From positions 56,839 to 120,838 of the forward strand of contig CAZZHR010000003.1 of NCBI GenBank assembly GCA_964654205.1: a DNA stretch of 64,000 nt, in the 5' to 3' direction. The notes under the pieces are model-generated. The model saw nothing but the letters and a program-made list of their open reading frames with translations, did not search any database and had not been told where the DNA came from. The translations under genes and the position numbers were made by a program. This DNA comes from an uncultured Candidatus Saccharibacteria bacterium. Lineage in GTDB: Bacteria > Patescibacteriota > Minisyncoccia > Phycocordibacterales > UBA2100. Positions 3,233-64,000 of this stretch are shown piece after piece (position 1 is the first letter of the stretch; each line of letters begins with the position of its first letter).

Positions 3233-3867
3233 AAACGGTGTACTTAGTGCGACACGGGGAGAGCGAAATCAACGTGAGCAAAACGTTCGTCGACTACGTG
3301 ATGTCCCCCCTCACTGAGCTCGGCAGGGAGCAGGCGCGGCTTCTTGCCGCACGCGCAGCCAAGCTGGATTTCGAACGGCTTATAGCGAGCCCTATAGAGC
3401 GAACCCGCGAAACCGCGGAGTATATCTCGAAGTCTACTGGACACAGCATCGAATTTGCCGAAGTATTTCGCGAGAGAAACCTACCGGCATCGCTCATTGG
3501 GAAGAGCAAGGACGATCCGGAGGCGCGTCTAGTCGCGGATGCAGCCATCCTGTCCTCTGAGGAAGATACGGCGAAAGTGGAGGAGACAGAGACGTTCTCA
3601 GAGTTGAAAGTTCGCGCGGGCGAAGCGCTTACATATCTCGAACAGCGACCCGAAAGCAGCATTATGGTTGTGGGACACGGCTACTTCACGCGTATGCTGA
3701 TTGCCCGCATGTGGTTCGGCGCGAGTATGACACCAGCAGAATTCAAGCCCTTCATATGGGGCATGCGGACAAAAAATACGGGCATCTCTGTCTTGCGCTT
3801 TGATCCGACTGACACACATCGTCCATGGTGGATGCTTGTCTGGAACGACCACGCGCATCTCGGGTAG
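3229..3867 (+). CDS. Histidine phosphatase family protein (phosphoglycerate mutase-like)
   Basis: LVRHGES...N catalytic RHG motif at N-terminus, HG later (VVGHGYF); start overlaps the folB stop by 4 nt. Confidence 0.7.
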   Translation: MKTVYLVRHGESEINVSKTFVDYVMSPLTELGREQARLLAARAAKLDFERLIASPIERTRETAEYISKSTGHSIEFAEVFRERNLPASLIGKSKDDPEARLVADAAILSSEEDTAKVEETETFSELKVRAGEALTYLEQRPESSIMVVGHGYFTRMLIARMWFGASMTPAEFKPFIWGMRTKNTGISVLRFDPTDTHRPWWMLVWNDHAHLG

Positions 3868-7489: not shown

Positions 7490-7537
7490 GTGTATATGCT
7501 GCCCGGTCGCGAACGCGACCGGGCAGCATCCCTCCCC

Positions 7538-15937: not shown

Positions 15938-16480
15938 ATGGCGACGGCCGTGTTTGGCGGCGGGTGTTTTTGGTGCACGGAGGCGGTGTTTGCGATGCTG
16001 AAAGGGGTATCGAAAGTCGAGCCCGGCTACGCCGGAGGTAAGATGGAGAACCCGACATACGAGCGAGTTTCTGAGGGAAACACCGGGCATGCCGAGGTCA
16101 TCCGGGTAACCTACGACCCCGCTGAAATTACATACGAAGACCTTCTGACGGTCTTTTTTGGCTCGCATGACCCGACGACGCCCAACAGGCAAGGTGCCGA
16201 CGTGGGGGAGCAGTACCGCTCGGTGATTCTGTACATGACTGACGAGGAGAAGGCGACGGCCGAGCGAGTGGCCAAAGGTATTCAAGATTCGCTTACCGAC
16301 GGCACTCGCGTCGTTACACAGATAGTGCCACTTGATACTTTCTACCCCGCCGAGGATTATCACAAGGAGTACTTCAAGAACAACACGAGTGCGCCCTACT
16401 GCCAACTCGTCATCGAACCTAAAATCGAGAAGGTGAAAAAACGCTTCTCCGAACTCGTCCGTCCCTCACTTGGAGGTTGA
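15938..16480 (+). CDS. msrA: Peptide methionine sulfoxide reductase MsrA
   Basis: GGGCFWC active-site motif. The stop codon (TGA) lies in the loop of the first REP-like palindrome. Confidence 0.9.
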   Translation: MATAVFGGGCFWCTEAVFAMLKGVSKVEPGYAGGKMENPTYERVSEGNTGHAEVIRVTYDPAEITYEDLLTVFFGSHDPTTPNRQGADVGEQYRSVILYMTDEEKATAERVAKGIQDSLTDGTRVVTQIVPLDTFYPAEDYHKEYFKNNTSAPYCQLVIEPKIEKVKKRFSELVRPSLGG

Positions 16481-16491
16481 ACCTCCAAGTG
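16467..16491. repeat. REP-like perfect palindrome copy 1 (CACTTGGAGGTT-G-AACCTCCAAGTG)
   Basis: 25-nt perfect palindrome read directly from the sequence; loop TGA supplies the msrA stop codon. Confidence 0.9.
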
Positions 16492-16504: not shown

Positions 16505-17125
16505 ATGAGGGTAGAGCTAGCGGACGAAGAACATTATCACGTTTTCAATCGCGGCGTTGATAAGCGAACGATATTCGCGGATGCGCACGACATCGATAGA
16601 TTCCTCACCAGCTTACGCATGTTCAACTCGACCGAGCCTATCGGAAGCATCTACGAGCATCGATTCAATGAGAAACAGTCGGGCGAATCGATTGTAGATG
16701 TGATTGCGTACTGCTTGAATGTAACCCATTACCATCTGATTCTCCGGCAGACGACGGGGCGTGGAATTCAACGATTCATGCAGCGGCTCGCTACGGGCTA
16801 CACGATGTACTTTAACGAGAAGTACAAGAGGACGGGCGCGCTCTTCCAGGGTAGGTACAAGGCGGTGCACATCTCTTCTAACGAGCAACTGCTACACACG
16901 AGCGTCTACGTTAATCTAAACAACCAACTTGGAGGTTCAACCTCCAAGTTGGGCGCTTCGAGTTGGGGAGAGTACCGGGGCAGTGACAATGGGTTCTGCA
17001 AGAAGGATATAGTGCTGGAGCAGTTCGCAACGGTCCAACAATACGAGCTATTTGCGAAGATGTCAGCGGCCGAGATTGCAGAGCGTAAGCGAGCGGAAAA
17101 AGAAATGCAATGGCTTGGAGGTTGA
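16505..17125 (+). CDS. IS200/IS605-family-like Y1 HUH transposase, REP-associated tyrosine transposase (RAYT)-like
   Basis: HYHVFNRG N-terminal motif, HUH motif THYHLIL, and ...ALFQGRYKAV...SVYVNLNN in the position of the RAYT WQxRF.../YIYINP tyrosine helix. The gene is flanked and interrupted by identical palindromes. Confidence 0.7.
   Translation: MRVELADEEHYHVFNRGVDKRTIFADAHDIDRFLTSLRMFNSTEPIGSIYEHRFNEKQSGESIVDVIAYCLNVTHYHLILRQTTGRGIQRFMQRLATGYTMYFNEKYKRTGALFQGRYKAVHISSNEQLLHTSVYVNLNNQLGGSTSKLGASSWGEYRGSDNGFCKKDIVLEQFATVQQYELFAKMSAAEIAERKRAEKEMQWLGG
16926..16950. repeat. REP-like perfect palindrome copy 2 (AACTTGGAGGTT-C-AACCTCCAAGTT), in-frame inside the transposase ORF (encodes QLGGSTSKL)
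   Basis: Same arms as copies 1 and 3, but the loop is TCA instead of TGA so the reading frame stays open. Confidence 0.9.
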
Positions 17126-17133
17126 ACCTCCAA
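17114..17133. repeat. REP-like palindrome copy 3 (CTTGGAGGTT-G-AACCTCCAA[A])
   Basis: 20/21 nt identical to copies 1/2; loop TGA supplies the stop codon of the transposase-like ORF. Confidence 0.85.
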
Positions 17134-35097: not shown

Positions 35098-35172
35098 AGC
35101 GGTGCTATACCCCGTGAGATACACACTCCCGAGTAAGTATTGAGCTCGGAGCTTTCTATCTCACGGGGTATA
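35098..35172. repeat. Inverted pair AGCGGTGCTATACCCCGTGAGATA ... TATCTCACGGGGTATA (perfect 16-bp arms, 35-nt spacer with nested hairpin); the right arm overlaps the TATAAT -10 box of ddl
   Basis: Read directly from the sequence; ddl ATG at 35181 is 9 nt after TATAAT. Confidence 0.85.
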
Positions 35173-45018: not shown

Positions 45019-45060
45019 CGATGTAGTATACAGAATCAATATTCCGGTGTTACAGCATTA

Positions 45061-45096
45061 CTCCTGTAAACTCACCAATTGGTGAGTTTACAGGAG
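45061..45096. promoter_or_regulatory. 36-nt perfect palindrome CTCCTGTAAACTCACCAA|TTGGTGAGTTTACAGGAG in the divergent recR / small-membrane-gene intergenic region
   Basis: Read directly from the sequence; both flanking genes point away from it, so a terminator role is unlikely and an operator or structured RNA is more plausible. Confidence 0.5.
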
Positions 45097-45164
45097 TGAG
45101 ATTGTTTAGTCCAAAAGAGTCGTGTGCGACACGCACGTTGTACATAACGTGATATCGTAGATAT

Positions 45165-59040: not shown

Positions 59041-59194
59041 ACTTTTTGTGCGTTGGGCAATACGCGCCGTATTATGCGTGATACGTTCAGTGACATATAC
59101 GCGAAACTTTTTTGTGGAAAAATTTCGAACGACTGCCGCGATTTGTACACTGCAGCCAGATTGTGCCGTATCCCACAGGGTATACTGAATACAA

Positions 59195-60337
59195 ATGATA
59201 CACATGAATTTGCCGTTCACGCGACAGAAGGTCGTCGCGGTCGTCGACGTAGCTCCTGGCGGCGCCTCTGTTGCCATACTTTCATGTCCGGACGGCGCCC
59301 CGTCGACCGTGCGCGCGTCCGCACGCTCCGTACTCTCTCTAGAGGCGCGTACAGAGGCGCAATCGAAGGCGCTCATAGGAGGACAGGTGAAGGAGGCTGC
59401 CGAGCAAGCAGTAAAGCTCTACACAGCCGCCGGTCAAAACGGCGCAGTGACTGAAGCGTACGTTGTGGTGCATGCACCATGGGCACGCTCCGTAATAGTC
59501 CGAACGCATGAGCTGTACGAAACGGACACTAAAATGAGCGCGGAGCACATCGCATCTATCGGTAAGAGCTCACTCGCGAACATCCGCGACGTGGATAGTG
59601 CGCGACTGCTCGAGGGGAGCGTAATTCAAGTGTCACTCAATGGGTACCCCACCGCATCTCCGCACGGCATGAGCGCCCGCTCTCTGGAGGTGACGTCTCT
59701 CGCAAGCGACTGTGATGAGTCTGTGCAATCGGCGGTGGAAGGATCGGTACACACTGTGTTTCCCGTAGCGCGCGTCTCTTGGCGCACGGGAGTCCGAGCG
59801 CTTTTTGCTGTTGCGCGCGAGGCATTGCCGCATGAGTCGTTTCTCGCCGTCGACATGGGCGTCGACAATACGCATCTCATATCAGTGCATGAGGGTGGCA
59901 TCGACCAGCTCGTCATTCCTGAGGGGAGCAGGACAGTGCTCTCACGCATCGCCGGTACGCGAGCGCCCGATGAGGTGCTCGGCATTTTGCGGATGATATC
60001 GCGAGACGCGTGTTCATCAGAAGCCTGCGCGTCGATAACGCAGGCGCTTGCAAGCGCGGAATCCGATCTTGTAAGAATCTTCGGAGAGGCACTCGCGAAA
60101 GTCTCAGCGAAAGGGAAGGTGCCCAACGACGTCGTGCTTATCGTGCACCCGAGCCTCGAGTCCTGGCTATCGGCATTCCTGTCGCGTATCGACTTTGCGC
60201 AATTTACTATAACGTCGATGCCGCTCACTATTCACGATGGGCGCGCGATGGATATTGCCCGGTGGGTGGGCGGCGCCGACACCTCCGACGCCCTCACTAT
60301 CGGGAGTGCCCTTGTCAACATTGAATCACGAAGGTAG
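59195..60337 (+). CDS. Hypothetical protein, possibly actin-fold ATPase of the PilM/FtsA type
   Basis: …KVVAVVDVAPGGASVAIL… and …FLAVDMGVDNTHLISVHEGGIDQLVIPEGSRTV… resemble the phosphate-1 and phosphate-2 regions of PilM/FtsA-like proteins. Weak, by-eye only. Confidence 0.3.
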   Translation: MIHMNLPFTRQKVVAVVDVAPGGASVAILSCPDGAPSTVRASARSVLSLEARTEAQSKALIGGQVKEAAEQAVKLYTAAGQNGAVTEAYVVVHAPWARSVIVRTHELYETDTKMSAEHIASIGKSSLANIRDVDSARLLEGSVIQVSLNGYPTASPHGMSARSLEVTSLASDCDESVQSAVEGSVHTVFPVARVSWRTGVRALFAVAREALPHESFLAVDMGVDNTHLISVHEGGIDQLVIPEGSRTVLSRIAGTRAPDEVLGILRMISRDACSSEACASITQALASAESDLVRIFGEALAKVSAKGKVPNDVVLIVHPSLESWLSAFLSRIDFAQFTITSMPLTIHDGRAMDIARWVGGADTSDALTIGSALVNIESRR

Positions 60338-60373
60338 CGAGTGGTACGACGTACGATGATATAATTTGGTCTC

Positions 60374-61723
60374 ATGGCTAAGGATTACTTTCAGGATATC
60401 ATCCCGCCTTCGCCGAGAAAGCATTATGCGGCGCACAAGAGAGCGACGGATGGCGACGCCGTGAATGTTCCGATACACACTGATCCCGAACCGATGACGC
60501 GCTCCATTCGCAACATTTCCGCACCGAGCAGAAGTCGCTCCCGTCCCATACCTGAACGACCCTCGCCAGCTAGGCGAGAGGGACGACGCGGTCTCACATT
60601 CATCGTGTGGGTTATCGCAGTCGTTGCCGTGCTCACCCTTGCCGCCCTGCTCCTCGTTGCACTTCGGCCTACCCGAGTGAGTGTCGAGCCTCGTACGCAC
60701 GTCCTTACCTTTGTTGGCGAGACATTTACCGCAGTCCCTACCCACCTCGCGACGGCTTCAGATCTCCCCTACGAGATGGAGACTTTCGAGCTGGAGGATT
60801 CTGAACTCGTCCCAAGTAGCGGCGTTGTCTACGCGGAAGAAAAATCAAGCGGAAATATCATCGTATACAACGATTTCCAATCCGAACCACTCAGACTTGT
60901 AAAGAATACTCGCTTCGAGACCCCTGCTGGACTCATATTCCGCTCCCCGGCAGACATCACTATTCCTGGAAGGCGTGCTGGCGCCCCGGGCCAGGTCGAG
61001 ATTACTGTGGTCGCCGACCAGCCCGGGGAGCAATACAACGTTGCCGCCGGGAAGTTTACGATACCCGGCCTCAGATCTTCTCCCGACATGTATGCGCAGG
61101 TGTACGCCGAGTCGAAGCAGCCTTTCTCGGGCGGATTCGTCGGTGAGCGTCCAGGGGTCGCCGCAGGTGCGCTCGAGAGTGCTATCGCAAGCGTACGTGC
61201 CCGTCTTGAAGCAAAGGCCGCAGAGTCGCTTGCACAGACGTCTGACGACTCGATTCGCCTCTCAAGTCTTGCGCGCATCGAATACGTATCTCTACCAAAC
61301 ACTTCCGATACCAGCGGCGGGGTGCGTATCAGCCAGAGGGCTCGCGTGAGCGTCCCCGTGTTCTCATCGCAGGTATTCGCCTCGGCAATTAGCGGCGCAG
61401 CGGTAGACGCAAGCGACATTGCCGCCATTCGCATACTCCCGCGGAATGACTTTCAGATTACGCCTGCCGGCACGTCTACGACTCCTGGCGATACACAGAT
61501 TACATTTGCTCTGCAGGGTGCCGCCCTACTCGTGTGGGACGTTGACGAACAAGCCCTTCAAGAGGCCCTTGCAGGCAAGGAGAAAGTCGCCTTTGAAGCC
61601 ATTGTTGCCGGGTTCCCCTCTATACAAGGGGCGACCGCACGAATAGAGCCCTTCTGGCGGAGCACGTTTCCCGATGTCCCGGCAGACATAGAAATTCGGG
61701 TGACTGAGCCCAGTGCAAATTAG
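60374..61723 (+). CDS. Hypothetical bitopic membrane protein (Pro/Arg-rich cytoplasmic N-terminus, one TM, ~340-aa beta-rich extracytoplasmic domain)
   Basis: TM helix LTFIVWVIAVVAVLTLAALLLVAL; no family recognised; directly upstream of infA. Confidence 0.4.
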   Translation: MAKDYFQDIIPPSPRKHYAAHKRATDGDAVNVPIHTDPEPMTRSIRNISAPSRSRSRPIPERPSPARREGRRGLTFIVWVIAVVAVLTLAALLLVALRPTRVSVEPRTHVLTFVGETFTAVPTHLATASDLPYEMETFELEDSELVPSSGVVYAEEKSSGNIIVYNDFQSEPLRLVKNTRFETPAGLIFRSPADITIPGRRAGAPGQVEITVVADQPGEQYNVAAGKFTIPGLRSSPDMYAQVYAESKQPFSGGFVGERPGVAAGALESAIASVRARLEAKAAESLAQTSDDSIRLSSLARIEYVSLPNTSDTSGGVRISQRARVSVPVFSSQVFASAISGAAVDASDIAAIRILPRNDFQITPAGTSTTPGDTQITFALQGAALLVWDVDEQALQEALAGKEKVAFEAIVAGFPSIQGATARIEPFWRSTFPDVPADIEIRVTEPSAN

Positions 61724-61769
61724 TGTCTTGACGCAAGGTCGACTTGCTGCTATTCTTCGCCCCGCAGAT

Positions 61770-61976
61770 ATGGCCGAAACGAAAGAAGTCGAGGGAGTCG
61801 TCGATGAGGCACTCCCGAATACACTCTTTCGTGTAAAGCTCGAGTCCGGTGAGATAGTACTCGCGTACCTCGCAGGAAAGATGCGTCTGCATAGAATTAA
61901 GGTGCTCGTCGGCGATCGCGTGCAGTTGCAACTTGATCCATACGGCGGCAGGGCTAGAATAACGCGGCGCTTTTAG
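61770..61976 (+). CDS. infA: Translation initiation factor IF-1
   Basis: …[33 protein letters not shown]…I..GDRV… matches the IF-1 S1-like fold. Confidence 0.9.
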
Positions 61977-61987
61977 CCGCTTCTGTC

Positions 61988-62101
61988 ATGAAAGTCAAAG
62001 CTTCCGTTAAGAAAATTTGCATGCATTGTCGGCACGTCAAAAGACGCGGTCGGTTGTGGGTCATTTGTTCAAACCCCCGTCACAAGCAGCGCCAAGGCTA
62101 A
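61988..62101 (+). CDS. rpmJ: 50S ribosomal protein L36 (37 aa; below the ORF-track threshold)
   Basis: [37 protein letters not shown] matches bL36 with its zinc-ribbon C…C…C…H. Confidence 0.85.
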
Positions 62102-62125: not shown

Positions 62126-62506
62126 ATGCGTATTGCGGGAATCACCATACCTGATGAGAAACGACTCGAGATAGGCCTCACGGCTATTTATGGCGTCGGT
62201 CGACCTCGTGCTCAGGCAACCCTTTTAGAGCTGGGTATCGATCACGGCAAGCGCCCGAAAGACCTCTCAACGCAAGAGGAGTCGGCACTTCGCGAGAAGC
62301 TCGAGAAATTTACCATCGAGGGTGAATTGAAAAGGCAAATTTCTGGGAACATTCGTCGCCTCAAAGATATCAAGGCGCACAGGGGAAATCGACACCTCAA
62401 GAAACTTCCGGTTCGCGGTCAGCGCACCAAGACAAATTCCCGTACCGTCCGTGGCAACGTCCGCAAGACAATGACGAGCGGTAGACGTAAGCTCGAGAAG
62501 ACATAA
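62126..62506 (+). CDS. rpsM: 30S ribosomal protein S13
   Basis: MRIAGITIPDEKRLEIGLTAIYGVGRPRAQ… matches uS13. Confidence 0.9.
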   Translation: MRIAGITIPDEKRLEIGLTAIYGVGRPRAQATLLELGIDHGKRPKDLSTQEESALREKLEKFTIEGELKRQISGNIRRLKDIKAHRGNRHLKKLPVRGQRTKTNSRTVRGNVRKTMTSGRRKLEKT

Positions 62507-62703
62507 GGGCTTGTCCCACGAAATGAGCGCATTACGTGCGTTCATTTCGTGGCTGACAAACCTTACCCAGCACCTTCTGCGGACAGTGTTGACCGCGAGG
62601 TACTGGAAAGGGTCTGTTTATTCACGATACAGCACGTCTTGGCGTGAGAAGGTGCTGGGTGTAAGAGCTTCTACGCTCGCTACACTCGCTAAGAATCTCT
62701 AAC

Positions 62704-63138
62704 ATGGGAAAGAAACGAATCATCAGAAAATCAGGTGGCACGGTGGACGCGGGGCTGAAGTCGCGCTCACTTGCGCGCACCGCGAAGAAGAATATTGTCG
62801 CGGGCACGCTCCACATCCATGCTACTTACAACAACACGAAGGTGCTTCTCACCGACAAGAATGGTAACGCAGTCGCCTGGTCTTCGTCTGGAAGTCTCGG
62901 ATTTTCTGGCGCCAAAAAAGGCACGCCCTTTGCTGCCGCCAAGGTTGGCGAGCTTGTCGGAGATAAGGCAGCAATCATCGGCGTGAAGGAAGTTGATGTC
63001 GTGATACGCGGTGTCGGCGCGGGTCGCGAGAGCGCGCTTCGAGGATTTGCGGGCAAGGGCATCGATGTGACGCGCATTGCCGATGACACTCCTGTGCCCC
63101 ACAACGGACCACGTCCGCCGAAGCCAAGGCGCGTATAA
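62704..63138 (+). CDS. rpsK: 30S ribosomal protein S11
   Basis: …GTLHIHATYNNTKVLLTDKNGNAVAWSSSGSLGFSGAKKGTPFAA… matches uS11. Confidence 0.9.
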   Translation: MGKKRIIRKSGGTVDAGLKSRSLARTAKKNIVAGTLHIHATYNNTKVLLTDKNGNAVAWSSSGSLGFSGAKKGTPFAAAKVGELVGDKAAIIGVKEVDVVIRGVGAGRESALRGFAGKGIDVTRIADDTPVPHNGPRPPKPRRV

Positions 63139-63176: not shown

Positions 63177-63776
63177 ATGCTACCCGTAAAATCTAAGTAC
63201 AAAATCGCGAAGCGCCTCGGCAACGGCGTCTTTGAGCAGACGCAGACACAGAAGTTCGCGCTCTCAGAGGCACGTTCTCGCAAAGAGAAGCGCGGACGCG
63301 GCGCGTCGGACTACGGCAAACAGCTGCTCGAGAAACAGCGCGTGCGCTACACATACGGGCTCGCGGAGAAACAGCTTTCAAACTACGCCCATAAAGCGAT
63401 CACCGAGCCAGACCCGTCGCTCTCGCTCTATCGGACGCTAGAGATGCGCGCAGACAGCGCGGTCTACCGGGCTGGTTTTGCCTCCACGCGACGCGCAGCG
63501 CGCCAGATGGTGAGTCATGGACACATCACTATCAATGGCCGCCGCACTACAGTGCCTTCGCATGAGGTAAAGAAGGGCGATGTGATTTCTGTACGCGAGG
63601 GCAGTCGCACAAGTCCGCTTTTTGCGTCGCTTGCCGAGAAGGAGGCCCGTTCGATACCACAGTGGCTTTCTGTAGATCTCAACTTGCTCAAGGCGGAGGT
63701 CACCGGTGAGCCGATGTACTCTTCGGCGGAAGTCGGATTGGACCTCGCGACGGTGTTTGAATTCTACAGCAGATAA
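63177..63776 (+). CDS. rpsD: 30S ribosomal protein S4
   Basis: N-terminal …KYKIAKRLG… and S4 RNA-binding domain (…RQMVSHGHITINGRRTTVPSHEVKKGDVISV…). Confidence 0.9.
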   Translation: MLPVKSKYKIAKRLGNGVFEQTQTQKFALSEARSRKEKRGRGASDYGKQLLEKQRVRYTYGLAEKQLSNYAHKAITEPDPSLSLYRTLEMRADSAVYRAGFASTRRAARQMVSHGHITINGRRTTVPSHEVKKGDVISVREGSRTSPLFASLAEKEARSIPQWLSVDLNLLKAEVTGEPMYSSAEVGLDLATVFEFYSR

Positions 63777-63845
63777 TGTATAATGTTCGCGATTTTTAGC
63801 CCCTTTATTATTCACTTTATGAGCGCTGCAGACTAATTTTAGTAT

Positions 63846-64000
63846 ATGTCGGATTACCACATCGCACTTCCTTCAAAACCCCGCGTCGTTTCTGAAAGCG
63901 AACGCAGCGGTACCTACGAGATAGACGGGCTCTACCCGGGTTATGGGTTCACGCTCGGCAACAGTCTTCGCCGCATCATTCTCTCCTCGCTCCCGGGCGC
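63846..64000 (+). CDS. rpoA: DNA-directed RNA polymerase alpha subunit (5' partial, truncated by the window end)
   Basis: …[20 protein letters not shown]… matches the alpha NTD; continues beyond the window. Confidence 0.8.

Follow-up and report, generated by a model that had tools for sequence, protein, structure and literature searches.

An apparently undescribed three-hairpin palindromic repeat fills stop-to-start gaps in a ribosomal protein operon of candidate phyla radiation bacteria

The stretch of DNA analyzed here, 64 kb of contig CAZZHR010000003.1 from an uncultured Candidatus Saccharibacteria bacterium (hereafter "the window"), carries near its 3' end a run of ribosomal protein (r-protein) genes in which rpsM (62126–62506, + strand) and rpsK (62704–63138, + strand), both confirmed as gene calls, are separated by a spacer of 197 nt (62507–62703). 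A first-pass annotation had singled out this spacer as an unusual, strongly structured insertion that exactly fills the gap between the two genes. This description is upheld both by the folding energy, with z-scores of about −6 to −8, and by the short spacers seen in relatives. The RNA fold of 62500–62710 reaches −88.9 kcal/mol, against −61.7 ± 4.3 kcal/mol for dinucleotide shuffles (z = −6.3, with 0 of 200 shuffles folding as well), while the same sequence folded as single-stranded DNA (ssDNA) gives z = −7.2, and the antisense RNA of the element z = −8.5. Because an identical sequence is present in an independent Logan contig (SRR15237804), the element is not an assembly artefact of one record. 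The same contig was the sole identical one returned by exact-protein look-ups for strain-level presence or absence, which yielded no polymorphism data.

The fold consists of three hairpins in series, H1 (62507–62563), H2 (62564–62661), and H3 (62664–62700), followed by AAC and the rpsK AUG, with all features on the + strand. The element is bounded on the left by the rpsM stop codon TAA (62504–62506) and on the right by the rpsK start codon ATG (62704–62706). H1, the 5' hairpin, has an outer stem formed by 62507–62515 (GGGCTTGTC) and 62555–62563 (GACAAACCT), and the place of its usual loop (UAUGAGCnAAGCGAAUU) is taken by a long, near-perfect inner hairpin (62516–62552), a subtype common to four other loci (L050, L058, L102, and L105). 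The first-pass annotation had described this inner hairpin as a perfect 11-bp stem; the stem exists, but its length is really 16–17 bp with one G·U pair. The same holds for the 13-bp long-range pairing reported there, which is real but extends over 14–15 bp (62564/5–62578 with 62647–62660/1). It corresponds to the 15-bp outer helix of H2, the long central hairpin, formed by 62564–62578 (UACCCAGCACCUUCU) and 62647–62661 (AGAAGGUGCUGGGUG) around a variable apex (62579–62646). A conserved GUAAG tag (62661–62665) lies between H2 and the foot of H3, reading gtaaga, gcaaga, or ctaaga in nearly all copies, and its inverted counterpart, (C)UU(U/A)AC, is placed between H1 and H2. H3, the 3' hairpin and best conserved module, pairs its arms (62664–62672 and 62692–62700) around a loop (62673–62691) that holds two CUCGC motifs, and the CUAAC tail (62699–62703), kept in most copies, adjoins the start codon. 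A covariance model of the H3 region (R1) scored 74.1 bits at 62657–62708, its single match in the window, and a repeat search found no recurrence of the H1 or H2 stem sequences anywhere else in the 64 kb.

To place this spacer among its relatives, we scanned species-representative genomes with the S13 protein and obtained 80 loci, all from Kaiserbacteria/Paceibacteria-type metagenome-assembled genomes (MAGs) of the candidate phyla radiation (CPR). Because loci were retrieved either with S13 or with a pattern covering the rpsK start, the rpsM–rpsK junction is over-represented, and all sampling is centered on the infA–rpsI operon; some loci represent the same organism from different sources (L050/L084, L090/L101, L105/L112, L054/L107/L115, L038/L089/L091/L099/L113, and L044/L111). 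Among the relatives, rpsM–rpsK spacers range from 1 to about 230 nt, with 13 of 79 measuring 3 nt and 30 of 79 at most 11 nt, typically in the form TAA-acc/aac/tat-ATG. The element is absent from this junction in 70 of the 80 related genomes, and the architecture seen in the window is common to nine loci (L038, L040, L044, L050, L054, L057, L058, L060, and L061). A metagenome scan with the 3' end of the element and the rpsK start added about a dozen further distinct members, down to ~51% S13 identity, and covariance models built from the relatives recovered about 45 distinct copies in Paceibacteria genomes and metagenomes (E-values from these short-calibrated models are rough, bit scores are not).

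Searches for a known counterpart were negative. Rfam 15 returned only one tRNA for the whole window at gathering thresholds and, at E ≤ 10, only chance sub-threshold miRNA-like hairpin matches within 62300–62900; other copies of the element matched no Rfam family, and viral contigs gave only weak, pattern-driven matches of at most 23 bits. Likewise, the literature searched on intergenic repeats, miniature inverted-repeat transposable elements (MITEs), or repetitive extragenic palindromes (REPs) in CPR/Patescibacteria held nothing describing this element. The spacer is one member of a three-hairpin palindromic repeat family, apparently undescribed, whose copies fill the stop-to-start gaps of one r-protein operon. 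The first-pass annotation had held that absence of the spacer from all relatives, combined with a match to a known insertion sequence remnant, would speak against its own proposals; this is nearly what was found, except that the repeat family is not a known one.

Across the family, the element follows the plan stop codon, H1, (C)UU(U/A)AC, H2, GUAAG, H3, CUAAC, AUG, with a total length of 120–290 nt. The base of H2 is a conserved ACCC...GGGU pairing and its helix is perfect over 13–22 bp, while its apex, from 17 to >100 nt long, is unrelated between genomes. The loop of H3 follows the consensus ..CUCRY-N3-6-YUCRY... Modules recombine, such that one H2 type can be paired with different H1 types. 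Optional additions are also seen: the H2 apexes of L040, L082, L110, and L054 have in common a CGAAUAGGG / CUAUUCG motif that may be another optional H2 module, and three copies (L047 723–958, L040 1072–1219, and L090 1008–1249) carry, at the same site in the 5' arm of H3, a GC-rich mini-hairpin (CCCGCCTGCGCC..GGCGGGCAGG), which is a second small palindromic element nested in the first.

Copies of the element are found at nine junctions of the operon, whose gene order is DUF (a gene for a domain of unknown function), infA, rpmJ, rpsM, rpsK, rpsD, rpoA, rplQ, rplM, and rpsI. Occupied junctions are infA|rpmJ, rpmJ|rpsM, rpsM|rpsK, rpsK|rpsD, rpsD|rpoA, rpoA|rplQ, rplQ|rplM, and rplM|rpsI, and one further copy lies directly upstream of the DUF gene that overlaps infA. 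All copies are in gene orientation and their boundaries are strict: the first helix begins 0–3 nt past the stop codon in about 40 of the 45 distinct copies, with the first bases of the element sometimes completing the stop codon TAG, and nearly all copies end with CUAAC, or CUAAGAC/CUAAGAU, directly ahead of the AUG. A single operon can hold up to five copies, as in L061 (5 in 6.4 kb) and L050/L084 (5 in 10.8 kb).

We then compared copies within and between genomes. In L050, the copies at infA|rpmJ and rpsM|rpsK are 98% identical from TAA to ATG (4 of 200 positions differ), and their flanks are unrelated, so that identity sets in at the stop codon and ceases at the start codon. Pairs at different junctions of one genome reach identities of 0.98, 0.93, 0.93, 0.85, and 0.83, whereas copies at the same junction of different genomes have a median identity of 0.52 and a maximum of 0.81. 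Occupancy also differs between neighbors. The closest relative of the window, L001 (S13 92% and S11 98% identical), carries no copy in 6.4 kb, its 78-nt spacer being unrelated, and L059, which adjoins the window in the S13+S11 neighbor-joining order, has copies at infA|rpmJ and rpmJ|rpsM and an rpsM–rpsK spacer of 3 nt. Carriers are partly clustered, with copies in all members of a clade (L054-L058-L050-L061-L057-L064) and of a pair (L040-L044), and otherwise scattered. The element thus duplicates within genomes, and junction occupancy turns over between close relatives. H3 bears some similarity to the 3' end of rpsM, as do H2 and the tag to the 3' end of infA in L050; both likenesses were judged to be due to chance.

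The rpsM–rpsK junction also holds inserts of other kinds. Unrelated inserts of 70–150 nt are present there in L001, L036, L013, L021, L035, L002, L027, L024, L008, and L029, as well as in L033, L055, L031, L043, L053, L039, L064, L046, and L069 (about 3381–3580 in most loci); they form several families, many of them hairpins or short-unit tandem or inverted repeats, and palindromic inserts in this clade seem generally to collect at this junction. In addition, the short spacers of L003, L004, L007, L028, and L075 (3382–3390) read TAGATATCT, TAGATATTT, TAGAT, or TAGGT, resembling joined H3 feet (UAGAU...AUCU), and may be footprints of deleted elements.

Covariation was then evaluated for each helix. 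In a MAFFT alignment of 23 H3 modules, 78.7% of cells were paired and 9 of 13 pairs had changed on both sides, a covariation score reached by 0 of 500 column shuffles and far above that of slid controls. A full-length model built from nine short natural copies (R2) was used to align 29 distinct copies: 89.9% of cells were paired, against at most 48.7% in slid controls, and 28 of 35 pairs had changed on both sides (189 such cells), with 0 of 500 shuffles scoring as high. By helix, 9 of 9 pairs covaried in the outer stem of H1, 10 of 13 in H2, and 9 of 13 in H3. H2 was paired in 96.5% of cells and, in a direct tally of its arms, showed 3–5 Watson–Crick pair types at each of positions 5–12. An alignment fitted to R2 leans towards the structure of the model, yet the MAFFT-based result for H3 and the direct tally for H2 agree with it. 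The three-hairpin structure is thus real, and the comparison of spacers in relatives for length and covariation, as suggested in the first-pass annotation, reveals variable lengths together with covariation in all three helices. An alternative "rod" structure, in which the 5' module pairs with the 3' module, appears in some minimum free energy folds; it is the local H1 and H3 stems, however, that covary.

The symmetry of the element is that of a DNA palindrome. H1 is an inverted copy of H3: on the minus strand, R1 and R2 alike give matches at the sites of H1, and H3 of the window, once reverse-complemented, aligns to the H1 part of R2. Although 87.9% of cells in the loops of H1 and H3 are complementary, this complementarity shows no covariation (as high a score is reached by 468 of 500 shuffles), and a kissing interaction between them was therefore rejected as a selected contact in favor of two conserved inverted motifs. 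Long-lived functional RNAs normally display an excess of G·U pairs on the sense strand. Here, non-Watson–Crick cells in the three aligned helices comprise 14 G·U vs 16 A·C, and the antisense strand folds at least as well as the sense strand, with a mean difference of 1.9 kcal/mol favoring antisense and the sense fold being better in 17 of 45 copies (−85.6 kcal/mol sense and −87.7 kcal/mol antisense for the window element). Given this lack of G·U excess, the data point to a strand-symmetric constraint, i.e., a DNA palindrome, recognition of ssDNA on either strand, or "correction" of the palindrome by template switching. Taken with the inverted relationship of H1 and H3, this suggests that the palindrome is maintained as DNA, in the manner of MITEs and of REPINs, the latter being paired REP hairpins.

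On balance, we lean, with slightly better than even confidence, towards a family that propagates as DNA in the manner of REPINs or MITEs and is carried in the transcript as a tolerated passenger. The element would be a non-autonomous palindromic replicator of this kind, whose hairpins would matter as single-stranded or cruciform DNA. An enzyme resembling Y1 (HUH) transposases may act on these hairpins, or template switching may keep them perfect. Being inside an operon, the element would be co-transcribed. Its tight fold would place the rpsM stop codon and the rpsK AUG within a few unpaired nucleotides of each other, so that re-initiation, or a shunt across the feet of the helices, could still occur, which is probably why the insertion is tolerated. 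An insert would probably be viable only if its fold left just a few unpaired nucleotides between the stop codon and the next AUG, and this limit on viability would explain both the strict boundaries and the near-perfect stems. As context for these steps, internal cistrons are normally 1–3 nt apart, and the window shows no enrichment in Shine–Dalgarno (SD) signals, with an SD-like 4-mer at 8 of 61 predicted genes vs a background rate of 0.16. Elsewhere in the window, TATACT and TATAAT boxes are located 8 nt before the ATGs at 59195 and 60374 (59170–59194 and 60349–60373), a proximity that suggests leaderless transcripts.

Among described repeats, the nearest kind is the REPIN, or bacterial interspersed mosaic element (BIME). 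REPINs consist of two inverted REP hairpins with a spacer between them and are thought to be mobilized by REP-associated tyrosine transposases (RAYTs) (PMC3337134), while in REPs a GT[AG]G tag precedes the foot of the hairpin by 0–2 nt on the 5' side, and hairpins with a 5' tetranucleotide are recognized by Y1 enzymes, whose action is on ssDNA (PMC6006769). The element resembles these in having two imperfect hairpins of roughly 35 nt (H1 and H3) inverted around a spacer, the whole being able to form one long hairpin, and a short conserved tag at the foot of the hairpin (GT[AG]G in REPs and GUAAG in the element). It also resembles them in being extragenic, non-coding, and multi-copy, in forming sequence families within genomes, and in a host that encodes a Y1_Tnp-like protein. 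It departs from them in several respects: its tag is GUAAG, GCAAG, or CUAAG rather than GT[AG]G, such that only the position is similar; its spacer is a long covarying hairpin (H2) with conserved ACCC/GGGU base pairs; its copies lie in one operon and one orientation, exactly abutting stop and start codons; the sole Y1-like gene seen is flanked by a different palindrome, unlike a REPIN with its RAYT; and genome-wide copy number appears low, at 1 in the 64 kb of the window. Membership of the REP/RAYT system is thus not established. As for MITEs, H1 and H3 with their tags provide the terminal inverted repeats.

By position, the closest analogues are MIRUs (mycobacterial interspersed repetitive units), which are short and seemingly mobile repeats in operons that are oriented with the genes, sit at start codons, and preserve downstream expression (PMC12548453; PMC3184786). 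MIRUs are 40–100 bp long, dispersed, and often in tandem, with an internal open reading frame (ORF) coupled to the downstream gene at −4 nt; the element, by contrast, has no conserved ORF, forms a three-hairpin palindrome, is single at each junction, and keeps only a UAA 1 nt before the AUG. A further comparison is with MITE-like intergenic palindromes. ERIC, Correia, and BOX elements are of this type, being co-transcribed and present genome-wide in both orientations, with a TA duplication in the case of Correia. Like them, the element is an imperfect palindrome of 100–200 nt in transcribed intergenic DNA, patchy at orthologous sites, with modular variants and internal insertions; unlike them, it has no duplication that we could find, a single orientation, a single operon, and a CPR host lineage.

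Several observations weigh against propagation as a REPIN- or MITE-like DNA element. First, searches of the window with R1 (filters off), R2, and a repeat search all gave a single copy in 64 kb. Across the window and 38 element-bearing loci, several of which duplicate one organism, 69 copies fall within 131 kb of infA–rpsI operon vs 1 in 168 kb outside it, which is the copy just upstream of the DUF gene (in these genomes, alaS and the DUF gene on one side and grpE/dnaK on the other flank the operon). A freely transposing REPIN or MITE should be dispersed, and a lack of room elsewhere is no explanation, since the window alone has 12 co-directional spacers ≥120 nt. The restriction may nevertheless apply to translation operons with high expression and not to this operon in particular, as our sample covers the surroundings of infA–rpsI and not other r-protein operons (S10/spc/str). 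Second, no target-site duplication could be defined: the only flanks in common are a TAA/TAG stop codon at the left end and, at the right end, the UAA within CUAAC, and simple target duplication does not account for empty sites such as TAA acc ATG. The element moreover fills the entire spacer, leaving none of the 3–40 nt seen at empty junctions. Third, H3, next to the AUG, is far better conserved than H1 and is retained alone in one locus (L104), and a looser tally of the outer helix of H2 gave 29 GU vs 11 AC, partly through a conserved basal U·G, which hints at some constraint on the sense strand.

The window encodes a Y1_Tnp-like ORF (16505–17125; PF01797, 27.6 bits with a cut-off of 23) with an HYH motif, but this protein reaches only 19.6 bits on the REP_Tyr_transpos (RAYT) model, for which the cut-off is 80, and no Y1 homologue was seen in any other locus examined. 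The gene is flanked and interrupted by a different 19-nt palindrome, TTGGAGGTTSAACCTCCAA, unrelated to H1 and H3. The copies of this palindrome, the sole three in 64 kb, are located upstream of the gene (16470–16488), in frame within it (16929–16947, encoding LGGSTSKL), and across its stop codon (17115–17133), an arrangement that resembles a REPtron whose transposase gene has received a REP insertion. Because the most similar copies of the element tend to be at neighboring junctions, and because neither this nor operon restriction nor whole-spacer replacement is predicted for a free REPIN, the element may owe its distribution to local copying, a filter imposed by translation, or a genuine RNA role.

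The last of these is the main alternative, which we regard as possible but on present evidence doubtful: an operon-specific RNA "punctuation" module in which the H2 duplex, with its substrate-like perfect helix, would be a cleavage site for a double-strand-specific, RNase III-type enzyme, H1 would shield the 3' end of the upstream cistron, and H3 would shield the 5' end of the downstream one, with the AUG 3 nt from the helix foot. Such modules would have arisen by duplication within the operon, in the manner of the repeated RNase III sites in the early region of phage T7, and be homogenized by gene conversion. The phage T7 early operon contains repeated RNase III processing hairpins, and intercistronic REPs can act as stabilizers of transcripts. 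As in these systems, related hairpins here lie between the cistrons of one unit, with long duplexes flanked by possible protectors of mRNA ends. The element differs from them in its inverted-repeat, DNA-type symmetry, in being dispensable, and in differing between close relatives. The near-complete confinement of copies to the operon (69 vs 1) would fit such a module, as would the strict stop/start geometry and single orientation, an H2 helix kept perfect while its sequence and apex vary freely, the conservation of H3 and its survival alone in L104, the excess of GU over AC in the loose H2 tally, and a host without SD signals, whose internal cistrons would need some other arrangement. Against it stands the absence of a sense-strand signature, with G·U about as frequent as A·C and the antisense folding at least as well, and there is no obvious RNA rationale for an H1 that is an inverted copy of H3 with complementary, non-covarying loops. 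Many close relatives, including the closest, have spacers of 1–11 nt or unrelated inserts, indicating that the element is dispensable, and neighboring genomes differ in which junctions are occupied.

A bolder version of this alternative, which we consider unlikely, is that the elements form a working system of "operon punctuation" in CPR bacteria without SD signals, one that propagates itself but spreads only within that transcript or operon. The module would be cut in H2 or bypassed by terminating ribosomes, uncoupling or re-coupling neighboring infA–rpsI cistrons, and would spread by local copying, or by re-insertion at the RNA level followed by reverse transcription. Such a system would account for boundaries that run exactly from stop to start, for a single orientation, and for confinement to one operon.

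The remaining alternatives fare worse. An autoregulatory r-protein leader, an idea raised in the first-pass annotation, is now very improbable; in such a leader, S11, S4, or S13 would bind upstream of rpsK and repress its translation. The element does lie immediately 5' of an r-protein start codon and has a strong conserved structure with a conserved loop motif, but it also precedes eight other genes (rpmJ, rpsM, rpsD, rpoA, rplQ, rplM, rpsI, and the DUF gene), which largely refutes both a leader and any rpsK-specific riboregulator. It is furthermore absent from most relatives, including the nearest (L001), its interior is hypervariable, and a search of Rfam for r-protein leaders, also suggested in the first-pass annotation, gave no match even at permissive thresholds. 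Slimmer still is the chance that the element is a site at which a folded single strand recombines, as integron attC sites do, or another site-specific recombinase target. The boxes of attC sites follow the consensus RYYYAAC and GTTRRRY. An imperfect palindrome with conserved ends and a variable center, in one orientation and always between ORFs, would suit such a site, and the 3' end AUCUAAC fits the RYYYAAC box; the 5' ends, however, have no matching GTTRRRY box, the flanking genes are core r-protein genes in conserved order rather than cassettes, and no integrase was seen in the loci or near the window operon (for the window, the Pfam scan covered only five proteins).

Finally, a small protein gene translationally coupled to rpsK, another proposal of the first-pass annotation, can be practically dismissed: a 63-codon ORF does run from a TTG at 62511 to 62702 (+ strand), with its stop 1 nt ahead of the rpsK ATG, but this frame, open in the window, L040, and L044, is broken in 7 of 10 members examined (L050 and L058, which have the closest element type, and five others), and it is therefore not a gene as far as conservation can tell. 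Its stop codon is merely the UAA of the family-wide CUAAC tail, the H2 interior that would encode one third of its product is unrelated between members, no amino acid conservation is seen, and an open frame of 63 codons has by our own arithmetic a ~5% chance of occurring per frame at such composition.

Other features of the window complete the picture of the locus. The 3' end of the window comprises the DUF gene (60374–61723), which overlaps infA (61713–61976), followed by rpmJ (61988–62101), rpsM, rpsK, rpsD (63177–63776), and rpoA, which starts at 63846 and runs on. No intrinsic terminator or promoter was found within 62507–62703, and a leaderless promoter in the 3' arm of H3, considered by eye, was dropped for poor hexamers. 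At the end of rpsD (63757–63784), TTGAAT-16-TATAAT resembles a promoter (10 of 12 matches) and may serve rpoA as an internal one. In the rpsD–rpoA spacer, TTATGAGCGC (63817–63826) is identical to a 10-mer from the H1 loop that other copies carry; as a candidate decayed solo H1 it scored only 1.7 bits with R2, which is not significant, and it is unconfirmed. Other strong inverted repeats in the window (35106–35172, 45060–45097, 1537–1582, and 7496–7529), one of them with 28-nt arms that are 82% complementary and another a perfect 19+19 palindrome, do not resemble the element and are probably terminators or other hairpins.

Overall, these observations indicate that the core gene string infA–rpsI, a widely used phylogenetic marker, carries a duplicating structured element in some CPR/Paceibacteria genomes, and restriction to one operon is unusual for palindromic repeats. 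In practice, gene callers will predict spurious small ORFs in such spacers, and both MAG assembly and the extraction of marker genes can be misled by near-identical copies that lie a few hundred bases from each other. For the biology of these bacteria, an insert of 120–290 nt that would be tolerated only as a tight stop-to-start fold may offer a handle on how internal cistrons are initiated without an SD signal, be it through re-initiation, shunting, or processing.

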